A DNA stretch of 45,245 bases from Gemmatimonadales bacterium (GTDB lineage Bacteria; Gemmatimonadota; Gemmatimonadetes; Gemmatimonadales; GWC2-71-9). The DNA is taken from NCBI GenBank assembly GCA_031404115.1, contig JANNGX010000129.1, positions 1-45,245 of the forward strand, given 5' to 3'. The notes under the pieces were generated by a model that was given only the letters and a program-made list of their open reading frames with translations, was not told where the DNA came from and searched no databases. Of the stretch, positions 26,968 through 42,302 are shown piece after piece; the stretch's first letter is position 1, and each line of letters opens with the position of its first letter. The translations under genes and the position numbers were made by a program.

Positions 26968-28899
26968 TCACGATGGGAGTATCGGGGCGCCAATACCTGG
27001 CGATTCATGCCGTGCGGCCACGGGCAGGTGGATCTTCACCCGCAGGAGCTTCACGGAATTCAGAAACACCAGGATGTCCGGCCCCAGATGGATCAGGGCG
27101 GCTTCCACGGGGCCGATGAGGCGAAGCAGCGCCGCAGTAATGCCCAGCACGTGCACCACCCCGACGCCGACGAAGAGGTTCTCCTTGATGGTCCGGTACG
27201 CCCGCATTGCGATTGCCCGGGCCTCCACGATCTTGCCCAGATCGTCGGTCATGAGGGCCACGTCCGCCGCCTCGAGCGCCGCCTGGGTTCCTCCGACGCC
27301 CATGGCGATCCCCACGTCGGCAGCCGCCAACGCCGGCGCGTCGTTAATTCCGTCTCCCACCATGGCCACAACGTACCCCTCGGTGTGGTACCGGCGAATC
27401 AGCGCCACTTTGGCATCGGGCAGCAGGTCCGCTTCCACCTCGTCTACACCGAGCTCCGTCCCAATTCGGAGGGCGACCGCATGGTTGTCTCCCGAGAGCA
27501 TGACGACCCGCCGGACCCCGCTGGCCTTGAGCTGGGCGATGACCTCCTTTGCGCCAGGACGAGCGGCATCTGCCAACCGGATCCGGCCGATCGCGCGGCC
27601 GCCCGAGGCGAGGTAGATAGCCGTCTGGCCCCCGGCGCCGGCGCGTTCCGGAACCCGAACCCCATTCTCGTTGAGAAAGGCCGGGTTCCCCGCCAGGACC
27701 TCCACTCCCGCTAGCTGGGCACGCACGCCGCGGCCGCTCACCACTTCGAACGCGTCAGGCTCGGCGATCGCCACGCCTTTCGCTCTGGCGTACACCAGCA
27801 CCGCCTCAGCAAGCGGATGGCTCGAGCGCCGCTCCGCAGCCGCGGCGAGCTCCAGCAGCCTGGTGTCGGTCATCGTGTCATCGAACCGGTCGATCCCGGT
27901 GACTTCCGGCCGGCCCACCGTGAGCGTTCCGGTCTTGTCCAACGCCACCAGGTCCACTTTGGCGAGCGTCTCCAGGAAGAGCCCGCCCTTCAACAGGATG
28001 CCACCCCGGGCCGCCCGCGCGATGGCCGCGATGACTACCAGCGGGGTGGCCAGGCCGAGCTCGGCCGGTGACGTGAAGATGAGCAGCGTAATGATCAGCC
28101 GGATGTCCCGGGTTGCGATAAACACCACAATGAGAAAAACCAGCACCACGGGAATGAGCCACGCCGCGACGCGGTCGGCCAGCTTCTGCACCGGAGCCCG
28201 CTGCTCCTCCGCCGTCTCGACCAGCGCCACGATCCGGGCAAACATTGTATCGCCCCCGACCTTCTGGGTCTCGACATCGAGCGCGCCCAATTCGACGACG
28301 GTCCCGGCGAATACCGTCGCGCCCGGGGCTTTTTCCTGAGGAATACTTTCCCCGGTAATGGGCGCCTGGTTAACGGAGGCCTGTCCGGTGCGCACCACTC
28401 CATCCACCGGGATCTTCTCGCCGGCCCGCACGATGACGATGTCGCCCGGGCGGACGCTCGCGACCGGCATGTCGAGATCACCCTCTGGCCGGCGGACCAG
28501 CGCGGTGGCCGGCACCGAACCAATCAGCGCTTTGATGGAGGCGCGCGCCCGCTCGGTGTTGAGCTCGGCGATCAGCTCGGCGATGAGAATAATCGTCATG
28601 AGGATCGCCCCGGCCACGTACTCCCGACCCGCCATGGCGATCAGTGTGGCGAGTGTCACGAAGATCTCGGTGCCGATCTTGTGCTCGCGCACCAGGTCGA
28701 GCACCCCGGTCTTGACCAGCGGATACAGCCCGAGGGCCACGGCACCAAACAGGACCGGCAGCGGCACGACACCCTGCTGAAAAAGCAGCACGACGCCGCC
28801 GACGAGGAGAATGCGCGCGATCTCAATCCAGCGATCGCGGGTCAGCAGCGTCCGGAACGATGGGCTGGAAGGACCCACCCCGTTACCTCTCGTCCGCAT
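26968..28899 (-). CDS. P1B-type (heavy metal) ATPase with non-canonical SPAE membrane motif
   Basis: TGES, DKTGTLT, SHP, SGD and GDGINDAP present; IFTSPAELGLATP stands in place of CPC; no N-terminal metal-binding domain. Confidence 0.9.
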   Translation of the reverse strand: MRTRGNGVGPSSPSFRTLLTRDRWIEIARILLVGGVVLLFQQGVVPLPVLFGAVALGLYPLVKTGVLDLVREHKIGTEIFVTLATLIAMAGREYVAGAILMTIILIAELIAELNTERARASIKALIGSVPATALVRRPEGDLDMPVASVRPGDIVIVRAGEKIPVDGVVRTGQASVNQAPITGESIPQEKAPGATVFAGTVVELGALDVETQKVGGDTMFARIVALVETAEEQRAPVQKLADRVAAWLIPVVLVFLIVVFIATRDIRLIITLLIFTSPAELGLATPLVVIAAIARAARGGILLKGGLFLETLAKVDLVALDKTGTLTVGRPEVTGIDRFDDTMTDTRLLELAAAAERRSSHPLAEAVLVYARAKGVAIAEPDAFEVVSGRGVRAQLAGVEVLAGNPAFLNENGVRVPERAGAGGQTAIYLASGGRAIGRIRLADAARPGAKEVIAQLKASGVRRVVMLSGDNHAVALRIGTELGVDEVEADLLPDAKVALIRRYHTEGYVVAMVGDGINDAPALAAADVGIAMGVGGTQAALEAADVALMTDDLGKIVEARAIAMRAYRTIKENLFVGVGVVHVLGITAALLRLIGPVEAALIHLGPDILVFLNSVKLLRVKIHLPVAARHESPGIGAPILPS

Positions 28900-29196
28900 C
28901 CCGAATCTTGATCGCGGACTCGACCGGCAGCACAAAGATCTTGCCGTCTCCTCCCCCACCGGTATGCGCGGTGCGCTCGATCAGGCGGACCACGGCCGGC
29001 GCGAGCGCAGTGGGCACCACGATTTCAAGCTTCGTCATTTCGACTTCCTCGAACACCGCCTCCGGCTCACGGGGATAGCGCCGCCCGAATCCTCGCACCG
29101 TCGAGACCGTCACGCCGGGAAGGTCCGGCACCGTGTGCAGTGCATGCAGGACCTCCGGCAGCCGTTCCGGACGGATGATGGCTTTGATCTCTCGCA

Positions 29197-29197
<1 letters not shown>
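28883..29197 (-). CDS. PII-like protein (metal-efflux-associated type)
   Basis: MREIKAIIRP, VTVSTVRGFGR, KLEIVV, AHTG..GDGKIFV and IKIR; start overlaps the czcA stop; T-loop shortened. Confidence 0.9.
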
Positions 29198-33889
<4,692 letters not shown>

Positions 33890-33893
<4 letters not shown>

Positions 33894-35362
33894 TCCTTGC
33901 CGGGGCGAGCCGGCGGAACGGCGGACCGATTCAGGGGCTCGCCAATGAGCCGCTCCACATCCGCGGCGGCCTTGTGATACTCGGAAAGCGCGCGCAAATA
34001 TTGGCCACCGGCGCCGATCAAGGTGCGCTGCGCGTCCAGAACATCGAGATATTCAAACTTTCCCAAACGGTACCCTTCAGTGACGGCTTCGAACGCCTGC
34101 TTGGAGCCCGGGAGCACTGTTTCGCGCAAGGCGGTCAGCTCCTCATGCGCGCTGGCCAGGGCTCGATACGCCTCGGCGAGGGCCGCCGAAACCCGTGCCT
34201 GGGAGGCGCGTCGCTCCTCGTACGCTTTGCCAAGGCGAAGGCTGGCTTCCTGGACACTGCGCCCGTTAAAGTCGAAGATCGGCAACGCCACCGCAGCGCC
34301 GAACAGCAGCGAGCTGCCGGTAAGACCGGCAAACCGCCGAAAACCGGCAGTCACCGACACGTCGGGCACCCGCCTGGACCGCTCCAGAGAAAGCGCGCTT
34401 TGCCGCTGCGTGATTTCGGCGGTCCACCGGGCCAGCTCCGGCGTTTCGGCCAGCCGGACCTTCAATTCGGGAAGCGCGGGCAGCTCGGCGACCTCCCGCA
34501 GATCGCCGATGGCGGCTTGGAAGCCGGCCTCCGTGCTGCCCCACGAGGCCGCCAGCCGTCCCCGGCTTGCCTCCAGCAGCCGGCGCGCGCGGCCCGATTC
34601 CACCCGTACGCCCGCGAGCGCCACCTGAGCCTTGGTTTGCTCGACCGGGGAAACCACACCGGCGATGACACGGGCACCGACGCTCTGCTCCACCTGTTCC
34701 ACGAGCCGGGTCGTTTGGTCGGTCAGGGCGACCAGTTCCTGGGCCATGAGAACATCGATGAAGCGACGGGTCACCTGGGTGAGGACATCGATACGGGCGA
34801 TCTCATAGTCCCACCCCGCCAGATCCCGGTCCAGCGCCGCAAGTTTCCTCCGCGCGGCACGCTTCCCTCCCAACTCGACCAGTTGGCTGAGCTGAACGGT
34901 CGTTTGAGGCTGAACCACTCGCTGATTTCCGGTGCCGCCGGCGAGAGACGATGTTGCCCCCACGTCCTCAGCCAGTACTCCAAGTACCGGGTTCGGTAGC
35001 CGGCCCGCCTGGAACGCGCGCGCCTCGCGCGCCCGGATTTCCCACGCAAAGGCCGCCAAGTCGGGACTGTGGAGGAGAGCGAGCGCGAGCGCGTCCCGGA
35101 GGGAGATGTCTCCCAGGGGATTCTCAAAGGCCGGCCCCTCCGGACGTCCCCTCTCCCCACGCGATGGTTGATAGACGGGTACATCTCGGCCCAGCAGCCG
35201 GGGGGTCGCGGCCACACCGGGTGGACTCGACCGCGGGGCACACGCGGAGAGTGTCAACACGATGCTGAGTAATACACAGGCATGGTCGGCCGTCCTGGTC
35301 GACACCCCGATTCGCGAAGGCAGAATCCCGGGCGCCGCCAGCCTGCAAATCCAAGAGGACAT
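33890..35362 (-). CDS. czcC: CzcC/TolC-family outer membrane factor
   Basis: LPNP, SQLVELGGKRAAR, LPIFDFN and YRLGKFEYLDVLDAQRTL; lipobox LSAC; start uncertain. Confidence 0.88.
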
Positions 35363-35511: not shown

Positions 35512-35907
35512 CTAGGTCAGAGGAGGGGCGCGAGGTTGGGGTGTGCCGCCCTTGGGCGGGCTCGCGCGGGCGGAAACGCTGGAAAAAGAGGGGAGCCGAA
35601 CGGCGACGTCCTCGAGCGGGAGCACCGCGATACTGGCGGATAAGGCCGCGACGGCCACGAGCGGGCCCGCGAAGGGCCTTACCGGCGCCTGGAAGACTGG
35701 GTGCCCATGCCCACCGTGCTCGGCGAACGGCAACACCGCCGGGACCCCGGGGCGAGCAGCGTCCGGCGCAGGCTCCCATGCCTCGTGCAAGTCGTGGGGG
35801 GTCTCGGCATGAGCGACCGCGTGCCCGATCTCCCAGGCGGGCTCACAGAGCGCCGCCCCGAGCAACAGGGCGACCGAAGCAACTCGTAACGCACGCGGTT
35901 TGAGCAC
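35512..35907 (-). CDS. His-rich exported leader protein ending in PRAPP (DUF2946/CzcI-like position)
   Basis: Signal-like RALRVASVALLLGAAL; HAVAHAETPHDLH and EHGGHGH; C-terminus QPRAPPLT*; directly upstream of czcC. Start GTG 35907 is tentative. Confidence 0.7.
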   Translation of the reverse strand: MLKPRALRVASVALLLGAALCEPAWEIGHAVAHAETPHDLHEAWEPAPDAARPGVPAVLPFAEHGGHGHPVFQAPVRPFAGPLVAVAALSASIAVLPLEDVAVRLPSFSSVSARASPPKGGTPQPRAPPLT

Positions 35908-41269: not shown

Positions 41270-42302
41270 TCAGACAAACCGCTGTCTGATGCCGAGAGTG
41301 TGGTTGGTGCGTTCCATAGACGCCTGCGCACTCGGTTCGCGGCCCGCAAGCGCGCGAATCGCATCAATGGTTTCCGGGACCACAATAGCCTGATTGTCCA
41401 CTTGATAGGCGTAGTACGCCTCTCGCCCTTCAACGGCCAGGATGTCCTCCCAGAGGGCCACTTCCCACATGGCACCGCGCGGACGACCCAGTTCCAGCAT
41501 CAGGTCTGCGGTGACGTTGAGCGCCGTAACGCCTTCGCTGGCGCGGATGAAGGCAATGCGCCCGTTACGACTGAAGGCGGATAACACCTCATCGCGCGAC
41601 GCATCACGGGAGAGCTCCACGATCCAGCAGTGGAGATGGCCGATATTCTCAGGGGCCATCACGGCCATCGTCACGACATCGAGGTCGGGCGCCACCGTCT
41701 TGGCGTCCGGTCCCTGGTGACTCGGAATCCTGCTCTCCGGTACCATCGTGTTGATGATGCCGCTCAGATTGACTTTCCCACGGGTCGGTGGCGCGCCGGA
41801 TCAGCACGCCGCGCGCCTTGCGAAGCAGCCCCGCATCACGCAACGCAGCGAGCGTGCGTACGGTTGCGGTCGTGTTGCAGGAGACAACACGCGTCGCGTT
41901 GCGCCCGACGGCGGAGTCATAGTTGGCCGAGGCGACGAAGCTGTGTCCGGTCAACTCGTGCTTTGCCCCGCCCTGGAAGATGAATTTCACCTTCGCGTCC
42001 TCGTAGCGCGGTTTGTTCTTGGCATCGATGCCTTTGGGCGTGCAGTCCACGACGACGTCCGCCTCCTTGAGCAGATCGTTCAGCGTGCCACGCACCTCAA
42101 TGCCCGCGTCGACCATTTCACCCTGTTTCTCGGCGAGAGCGGAGTAGATGGCAAGCCCGCGCGACTGCGCCCCGCGCATGCGATAGTCGGCCGCAATATC
42201 GGCAATGCCGACCAGCTCCATGTCTTCCTGGAGCAACACCGCATCTACCACGCGACGCCCGATCACTCCGAACCCGGACACGGCTACCCGTATTCTGGTC
42301 AT
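41270..42302 (-). pseudogene. Type II (archaeal-type) glyceraldehyde-3-phosphate dehydrogenase, one frameshift at about 41770 (real or sequencing error)
   Basis: GFGVIGRRV, DCTP, FQGG, VVSCNTT and RRATDP lie in one frame; PSHQGPD and QAIVVPETIDAIRA lie in the next. Deleting one base in CAAT restores ESHLSGIINTMVPE. Confidence 0.85.

Follow-up and report, generated by a model that had tools for sequence, protein, structure and literature searches.

What a heavy-metal pump could carry when it has no cysteine at all is the question raised by a gene in a 45,245-nucleotide stretch of contig JANNGX010000129.1 (Gemmatimonadales bacterium, assembly GCA_031404115.1), hereafter the window. Seven P1B subclasses, each defined by a Cys-containing tripeptide in transmembrane helix M4, are recognized in a 2026 review (PMC13460109), and seven also in a 2016 paper (PMC4932525). 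The gene at 26968-28899 on the minus strand is an intact P1B-type ATPase by fold, profile and catalytic motifs, and residues E280, H583, H604 and D608 form a predicted sulfur-free metal site of nitrogen and oxygen donors. It is very probably a working transition-metal exporter, and its clade is likely an undescribed, unclassified P1B subclass, in effect a candidate eighth type with a predicted cargo. Whether it is an exporter that prefers Ni and Co (probably also Zn) and feeds a CzcCBA system through this site is an even call. The gene and its key residues are as follows.

26968-28899, minus strand: Cys-free P1B-type ATPase, 643 residues from the ATG at 28899, probably 636 residues from the GTG at 28878
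28666-28668, minus strand: E78 (in GTE) where M1 begins, a candidate carboxylate of the entry site; Val81 stands where M1 usually has Met
28348-28356, minus strand: TGE dephosphorylation motif, from motif reading
28060-28071, minus strand: M4 motif S277-P278-A279-E280, replacing CPC-A or SPC-A, with P278 43 residues before D321
27925-27939, minus strand: DKTGT phosphorylation motif (D321), from motif reading
27151-27153, minus strand: H583 in M5, aligned with LpCopA N689 and preceded by a one-residue M5 insertion
27076-27090, minus strand: M6 motif H604-L-G-P-D608, matching LpCopA M717/S721 and sCoaT H657/T661 in alignment

The putative site is defined by three helices, of which M4 reads FTSPAELGLATP (FTSPAEL), M5 KENLFVGVGVVHVL (VVH) and M6 LIHLGPDILVFLNS (HLGPD). 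HMMER alignment places H583, H604 and D608 on N689, M717 and S721 of LpCopA, and H604 also on H657 of sCoaT. Under our own mapping, a six-residue numbering offset, the three LpCopA positions become N683, M711 and S715 of AfCopA, which are residues of its high-affinity site (PMC9433437). Similarly, the HEGxT residues of sCoaT are published site residues, and H657 is essential and has been proposed as a built-in counter-ion (PMC8880997). S277 and A279 align with two canonical M4 ligand positions, and E280 occupies a position that is mostly a small residue in the other P1B pumps sampled; its invariance makes E280 a putative ligand. In place of the M1 Met and M2 exit Glu found in other P1B pumps, the protein has V81 and A96. 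The Glu/His/His/Asp site put forward in an earlier sequence-only reading is thus backed by positional homology of H583, H604 and D608 and by conservation.

The first homologue search gave 121 sequences, comprising 119 relatives at 70-89% identity and two copies of the gene itself. FTSPAELGLATP, H583, H604, G606-P607-D608 and N614 are present in all 121, and 108 have no Cys at all. The sequence-only reading had named conservation of SPAE, the M5 His and the HLGPD-type M6 as its test, and CPC or SPC in close homologues as the contrary outcome; every one of the 121 carries FTSPAELGLATP, H583, H604 and D608 instead. Its IKENL and VVHVL start at residues 571 and 581, and within IKENL N574 alone is invariant (K572 in 40/121, E573 in 68/121). 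In a metagenome motif scan that yielded 119 loci, M4 was conserved by construction while M5 and M6 were independent; H583, H604 and D608 are kept in 50 of 51 non-redundant full-length SPAE proteins (54-74% identical, query included), and the lone exception, L152, is a chimera.

The same arrangement extends to a more distant branch. The 150 best representatives at 50% identity include four SPAE and seven SP[ILT]E proteins, and a profile of those seven retrieved 205 proteins at E<=1e-150, 120 of them listed; the few taxon-named SPxE proteins among the matches listed belong to Patescibacteria or Ca. Babeliales. Across the 125 SPxE proteins compared, which are 33-43% identical to the query, the query residue is kept in 19% at the median of 219 membrane-region positions, and E280, H583 and H604 are each kept in 125/125, D608 in 123 (Glu in 2), S277 in 123 (Thr in 2) and E78 in 122 (Asp in 3). 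E78 is Glu in 51/51 SPAE proteins and Glu or Asp in 125/125 SPxE proteins. The complete S-P-x-E/H/H/D set is found in 50/51 independent full-length SPAE proteins and 121/125 SPxE proteins; of the five proteins that deviate, four have a conservative change (T for S, E for D) and the fifth is the chimera. The motif set is not a chance pattern, since it recurs in hundreds of homologues. DKTGT and GDGxND are universal (51/51 SPAE, 125/125 SPxE). The SPxE proteins have a median of three Cys elsewhere and carry Cys within M4-M6 in only 9/125, so that freedom from Cys is meaningful as a trait of the site.

The gene is under purifying selection. The ratio of non-synonymous to synonymous substitution rates (dN/dS) against three relatives is 0.15-0.20 over the whole gene and 0.045-0.085 over M3-M6. 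A strain-specific decayed SPC or CPC copy is rejected by this low ratio together with the site invariance in 121/121 matches and at 33-43% identity. A sequencing error as the source of SPAE is likewise rejected: contigs of runs X5 and X6, both from one study that may be the source of the window, span the SPAE codons, and no variant is listed there.

Three statements of the sequence-only reading about the protein itself hold, namely that the open reading frame (ORF) from the ATG is Cys-free (the 643-residue translation of 26968-28899 counts 0 Cys), that the catalytic motifs are intact, and that an N-terminal metal-binding domain is absent. TGES starts at residue 182, SPAE at 277, DKTGT at 321, MLSGD at 467, GDGIND at 515 and HLGPD at 604; the SHP motif at 360-362 contains the nucleotide-binding (N) domain HP pair H361-P362, so that the HP and SGD motifs stand intact beside TGES, DKTGT and GDGIND. 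The heavy-metal P1B model TIGR01525 scores 522 bits against a cut-off of 346, and Pfam finds only E1-E2_ATPase, Hydrolase and HAD. The first helix begins at about residue 21, and neither Pfam nor two AlphaFold2 models show a metal-binding domain upstream. These models (mean predicted local distance difference test 82.8 and 83.0) contain MA, MB and M1-M6, with helices at 21-41, 47-72, 77-90, 94-126, 235-263, 266-275/279-298, 555-591 and 597-620, and with M4 unwound at 276-278, i.e. at the Pro; the top fold matches are P1B pumps. The start given earlier fared less well. The frame from ATG 28899 is open, but GTG 28878 is more likely the true start, being preceded by GAGAGG and lying 4 nt past the stop of the upstream PII-like gene, and the database call of the protein is 636 residues.

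The absence of the Cys-containing M4 tripeptide by which PMC13460109 defines the subclasses (here S-P-A-E, with 0 Cys) lowers the case for membership of every named subclass, not that for P1B by fold and profile. The P1B-4 signature is missing, with SPA instead of SPC (A279 aligns with C327) and HLGPD instead of HEGxT, the His alone retained; one P1B-4 trait, the lack of a classical heavy-metal-binding domain (PMC8880997), is present. SPA, VH and HLGPD replace the CPC or CPH, M5 YN and M6 MxxSS of P1B-1 and P1B-3, and the TIGR01511 score of 383.5 bits is under the cut-off of 397. The P1B-2 combination of CPC, Lys and an Asp at the ZntA D714 position is likewise lacking, with His in M5 and at the first M6 position; the protein passes TIGR01512 (431.7 against 313.5), which accounts for the automatic 'Zn/Cd' labels of these proteins. 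The PCP of P1B-5 is not found in M4, and the TPCP reference branches elsewhere. Nor are the SCA of P1B-6 in M4 or its M5 Asn and M6 H-N-x-(S/T) (the latter two from PMC13460109) present; the one YSCA reference, itself a long branch, sits close to the SPAE/SPxE clade in an open fork, and a distant kinship with P1B-6 is conceivable. The CSC of P1B-7, whose references were picked by motif only, is also absent from M4.

Phylogeny agrees with the motifs. A 68-row quick IQ-TREE was built with nine SPAE and seven SPxE rows, most CPC rows having been thinned out beforehand; references for P1B-5, P1B-6 and P1B-7 were chosen by motif alone, those with SCA and TPCP sit on long branches, deep forks are open, and one CSC locus (L215) had no usable ORF. 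SPAE and SPxE form one clade (SH-like approximate likelihood ratio test, SH-aLRT, 98) separate from the SPC, CPC, CPG, TPCP, CSC and GACG groups, and hence, with the limit just given for P1B-5 to P1B-7, apart from all seven sets of references that the sequence-only reading had asked to be compared. A tree constrained to unite this clade with five SPC pumps was 58 log-likelihood units worse (approximately unbiased test, p-AU 0.035), a weak test in that the tree was quick and the group was named after the tree had been seen. With motifs that differ, a position outside the SPC clade and this weakly rejected union, P1B-4 membership was discarded. A GACG group had been sister to SPAE with support 95 in an earlier 64-row tree without SPxE; that placement was lost once SPxE and CSC sequences joined the tree.

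The claim that the protein fits no standard subclass is therefore borne out at every M4 motif, and its motif belongs to no characterized subclass in the literature covered, where all seven are Cys-based (PMC13460109). The SPAE/SPxE motif is undescribed in the literature searched, a body of work outside which lie supplements, most subscription journals and the Smith et al. 2014 classification; a search of passages of PMC11672702 also found nothing. We think it improbable that the cluster has already been noted in print without characterization.

Several known pumps share parts of the design. The best sequence match in the Protein Data Bank is the P1B-4 pump sCoaT (7QBZ, E 1.9e-94). Like the P1B-4 pumps sCoaT, CzcP and CtpD/CtpJ, the ATPase has about 640 residues, no classical metal-binding domain and an M4 that begins S-P; the M6 His is at the same position (H604 for H657), and the gene lies downstream of a czc operon, as does that of CzcP. 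Unlike sCoaT, it has Ala279 for C327, Leu605 for E658 of HEGxT, Asp608 for T661 and Ala96 for E120, and it has the additional Glu280 and M5 His583. The fold is that of P1B-1 CopA (LpCopA 3RFU, AfCopA 7R0G), with a TM score of 0.74-0.75 to 7R0G and, in the comparison with CopA, Z 29.8 and an rmsd of 5.0 over 603 aligned residues, but CPC, YN, MxxSS, the M1 Met and the CxxC domain are all lacking and every sulfur ligand is replaced. The P1B-7-like CSC pump P0262 has an Asp at the D608 position in its M6 'SLPD'; such pumps (P0262, P0315, P0378, assigned by motif) differ in their CSC M4, Asn in M5 and Gln at the H604 position, and fall in a separate clade.

The GACG group (Methylobacterium extorquens AM1, Xanthobacter autotrophicus, and plasmids of Rhodanobacter and Novosphingobium) is about 39-42% identical to the ATPase and uses the same positions with swapped ligands (M4 C, M5 D, M6 H...E; D-X20-H against H-X20-H), keeping one M4 Cys, unlike the SPAE pumps. 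Its neighbours, an RcnR-like repressor, HupE/UreJ and resistance-nodulation-division (RND) pumps, are similar to those of SPAE loci. Within the group (L002:4762-6792; L208-L211; P0122-P0241), AGACG is found in M4 in 119/120, VD in M5 in 120/120 and HVASE in M6 in 117/120. On three of four plasmids the GACG pump lies directly behind an RcnR/FrmR-like repressor near an RND pump, in two of these with HupE/UreJ. M4 motifs outside the scheme other than SPAE were CPG, CPD, GAC, CAD and APT, including CADE, CADD and a Cys-free APTA among the 50% representatives (P0316, P0383, P0308). P1B pumps with CPD in M4 (G000 C285 and L054) branch inside the CopA-like clade.

In the window, the ATPase is the last gene of a packed operon.

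35512-35907, minus strand: His-rich 131-residue leader ORF ending QPRAPPLT, without CXXC; predicted CruR/CutF/CzcI-like metal-sensing arrest peptide
33890-35362, minus strand: CzcC-like outer-membrane factor (PF02321, NF045679)
32382-33893, minus strand: CzcB-like periplasmic adaptor (TIGR00999, TIGR01730)
29197-32367, minus strand: CzcA-type divalent-metal RND pump, 63.4% identical to CzcA of Cupriavidus metallidurans CH34
28883-29197, minus strand: PII-like protein of 104 residues between czcA and the ATPase gene (PF00543, E 4e-21)

The order is leader ORF, czcC, czcB, czcA, the PII-like gene and the ATPase gene, with gaps from czcC to the GTG of the ATPase of -4, 14, -1 and 4 nt. In many related loci a PII gene or DUF3240 comes after the RND gene (PII in 5/63 groups). 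The same genome also encodes P1B-1 (CPC/YN), P1B-2 (CPC/Lys/Asp) and P1B-4 (SPC/HEGST) pumps, which suggests a different cargo for the Cys-free ATPase, and further a CPD-type pump and a partial P1B-5-like pump.

The leader ORF ends 149 nt before czcC. It is conserved with its RAPP in G014 (57% amino acid identity, dN/dS 0.45) and G185, has copies in relatives (L219:2909-3295, L221:1650-2099), and resembles His-rich ORFs ending in R[AGS]PP at eight other SPAE loci (L093, L094, L104, L124, L138, L143, L162, L163). In CruR, copper is sensed through CXXC and the RAPP motif acts as the arrest peptide (PMC9426467), and CzcI precedes czcCBA without a proline motif (PMC9973294). Like the CruR/CutF (DUF2946) leaders, the ORF is short, ends in RAPP and stands ahead of a metal operon, and like CzcI it precedes czcCBA. 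It differs from the former in its His clusters, having one Cys only and no CXXC, and no Pfam or DUF2946 match at E<=0.1, and from CH34 CzcI, which lacks a C-terminal proline motif. With CXXC and a Pfam match both absent, a His-based sensor is a prediction, and the leader is a candidate non-copper arrest peptide of the CruR/CutF type by analogy. The wider proposal is of an old unnamed subclass, SP-x-E / H / HxxxD, whose members range from those of Patescibacteria and Babeliales to those of Gemmatimonadota, Bacteroidota and plasmids of proteobacteria. It would have no sulfur ligand and would select Ni/Co or Mn/Fe to the exclusion of Cu, Cd and Pb, and in this operon a RAPP stalling peptide that relies on His and lacks CXXC would act as the switch; taken as a whole the proposal falls slightly short of even.

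Genomic context was compared across 84 SPAE loci with flanks (63 groups when clustered at 90% identity, of which 39 reach 6 kb or more; 39 short metagenome loci omitted, the SPxE branch being outside these counts). Controls came from a generic pattern scan of genome contigs that gave 80 loci, one of them SPAE, the other 79 serving as controls and tree references. An RND pump is present in 27/39 groups against 1/75 control P1B loci, HupE/UreJ_2 in 9/39 against 0/75, and a major facilitator superfamily (MFS) protein of the NreB/NrsD-like type in 6/39 against 0/75, a contrast that is indicative only, since most of the controls are Cu pumps from phyla other than this one. Further, the 39 groups include NcrB-like repressors in 9, RcnR-like repressors in 4, a second P1B pump in 7 and a cation diffusion facilitator (CDF) in 3. 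Any metal-efflux gene is found in 34/39, and a nickel-type marker (HupE/UreJ_2, NcrB-like, NreB/NrsD-like MFS or RcnR-like) in 15/39. One neighbouring repressor is 64% identical to an annotated NcrB, which is a nickel-responsive repressor (PMC3046157), and the neighbouring MFS matches a cyanobacterial 'nickel resistance protein' at 47-50%. The CzcA/NccA-type DFGxxVD helix occurs in 19 of 37 neighbouring RND ORFs of at least 600 residues, the pattern leaving the rest unclassified, and the Cupriavidus EM10 copy adjoins czcE, dmeF and ncc genes. A scan for NcrB/RcnR-type operators found none in the window, and its hits in 3/84 SPAE loci against 5/79 controls are no signal. Beside SPAE pumps, an unannotated 'transmembrane anchor' protein accompanies the HupE/UreJ_2 protein (L081:20943-22362 and 10 locus groups); beside GACG pumps (L208, L210), too, HupE/UreJ has a hypothetical protein of similar size after it.

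In the two-step model of efflux, a pump first moves the ion to the periplasm and CzcCBA then removes it. In the proposed mechanism a divalent ion would enter past the conserved acidic residues E78 and E108, a route suggested because there is neither a metal-binding domain nor an M1 Met. E280, H583, H604 and D608, perhaps with S277, would hold the ion occluded while D321 is phosphorylated, and the ion would leave to the periplasm in the E2P state, where H604 may serve as an internal counter-ion, as proposed for H657 of sCoaT. The co-encoded CzcCBA would take the periplasmic ion and expel it across the outer membrane, so that the ATPase would fill the role of CzcP beside czc on pMOL30. The His-rich RAPP leader may couple operon expression to metal through ribosome stalling.

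Which ion is carried is the less certain part. A nitrogen and oxygen donor site would favour Ni, Co, Zn, Mn and Fe over thiophilic Cu(I), Ag, Cd and Pb, and the gene context points to Ni/Co/Zn more than to Mn/Fe. Several observations weigh against the Ni/Co preference and the site as drawn. The window RND is closer to CzcA (62.5%) than to NccA (47%, first ORF of EM10 NccA), which favours Co/Zn/Cd; the nickel-type marker reaches only those 15 of 39 groups; CsoR-family matches of up to 44% identity also occur in 16/75 controls; and unrelated systems (chromate, VIT, Nramp) sit together in metal islands. E280 is one residue past the canonical second Cys position (A279), so that its role as ligand is putative, and the usual M2 exit-path Glu (sCoaT E120) is Ala96. 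A partial fourth comparison (G014) gave dN/dS 0.17, and 0.26 over 58 M3-M4 codons. Zinc is bound well by His/Asp sites such as CDF site A, and the same site and mechanism with Zn(II) as main cargo (with Cd/Co) would make the protein a Cys-free counterpart of CzcP and P1B-4 beside czcCBA. The 63.4% identity of the window RND to CH34 CzcA, the P1B pump with SPC/HEGST that follows czc in CH34, and the in vitro preference of sCoaT for Zn and Cd over Co (PMC8880997) all fit; the genome, however, already has P1B-2 and P1B-4 pumps, nickel-type neighbours recur, and Cd binding should weaken without thiols, which leaves this alternative rather unlikely.

A Mn(II)/Fe(II) exporter, whose thiol-free site would resist oxidation, seems unlikely by a slightly greater degree. 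Two His, one Glu and one Asp are the donor set of Mn-binding proteins of the PsaA/MntC type, VIT-family neighbours occur in 3/63 groups and Nramp near the Shinella copy, and the deep SPxE branch in reduced-genome lineages makes a housekeeping role plausible. The dominant neighbours are nevertheless CzcA/NccA-type RND, NcrB, NreB-like and HupE genes, and no Mn/Fe regulator cluster recurs in three or more groups. Another hard cation (Ca, Mg, a lanthanide), or an importer or metal-delivery pump, would suit the carboxylate-rich membrane region (E78, E93, E108, E280, D608) and the frequent tie of HupE/UreJ proteins to Ni uptake. The two invariant His speak against it, as does the Glu at Pro+2, where the PEGL motif of SERCA has Glu at Pro+1, and for import also the co-orientation with efflux operons; although Ca2+ transport is reported for some P1B-4 members (PMC8880997), we consider this very unlikely. 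Finally, a decayed or non-transporting SPC/CPC pump copy could be read into the absence of every Cys ligand, of the M1 Met and of the M2 exit Glu, and into an N-domain HP motif in only 24/125 SPxE proteins. Set against invariance at 33-43% identity, dN/dS of at most 0.20 over the gene, intact catalytic motifs and a separate supported clade, it is hardly credible.

Predicting P1B substrates depends on M4 motifs that contain Cys, and automatic annotation now calls these proteins Zn/Cd or generic cation pumps. A widespread natural His2/Glu/Asp pump would be a direct test of the need for thiols in gating and in coupling metal to phosphorylation, and would bear on how ligand identity sets metal choice; how P1B pumps select Ni, Co, Fe or Mn still lacks a good explanation. 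A comparison series is at hand in the GACG group (with C/D/H/E at these positions) and in two chimeras that look natural; Cupriavidus sp. EM10, Shinella sp. PSBB067 and Rhizobium daejeonense are cultured hosts, and a protein of 636 residues without Cys lends itself to spectroscopy.

The gene has a sparse, patchy distribution. The exact pattern occurs in 3/61 relatives and 3/301 genomes of the phylum (its own genome counted in both), and in 0/151 genomes of another class; taxon-named close matches are mostly Gemmatimonadota, and named SPAE carriers are plasmids of Shinella sp. PSBB067, Rhizobium daejeonense and Cupriavidus sp. EM10 and a metagenome-assembled genome of Cytophagaceae. Neither SPAE nor SPxE was matched in viral contigs, phage records gave only matches of 31-36% identity among 8 listed of 48, and the ESM Atlas returned generic P1B clusters only. 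Two chimeras join an SPAE N-terminal half, up to about DKTGT, to GACG-like M5/M6 (L152:6078-7982) or CopA-like M5/M6 (L106:2778-4517), and are natural recombinants or mis-assemblies. On Enterobacter plasmids, an antR-annotated repressor adjoins a CPC pump 42% identical to the query (L084:7166-9713), which is presumably the antimonite system AntA.

No tRNA was found in the window. Its segment 36011-45236 (minus strand) encodes acetate kinase, phosphoketolase, a glucoamylase-family gene, a lycopene-cyclase-domain protein, a Met/His-rich protein and the end of a second CusA/CzcA-family RND; its GC content is about 0.62 against 0.66-0.74 in the left half, and gene content and lower GC together suggest a larger acquired block next to pyrR. 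At 41270-42302 (minus strand), an archaeal-type (type II) glyceraldehyde-3-phosphate dehydrogenase appears as two overlapping ORFs, with an apparent frameshift near residue 181-186.

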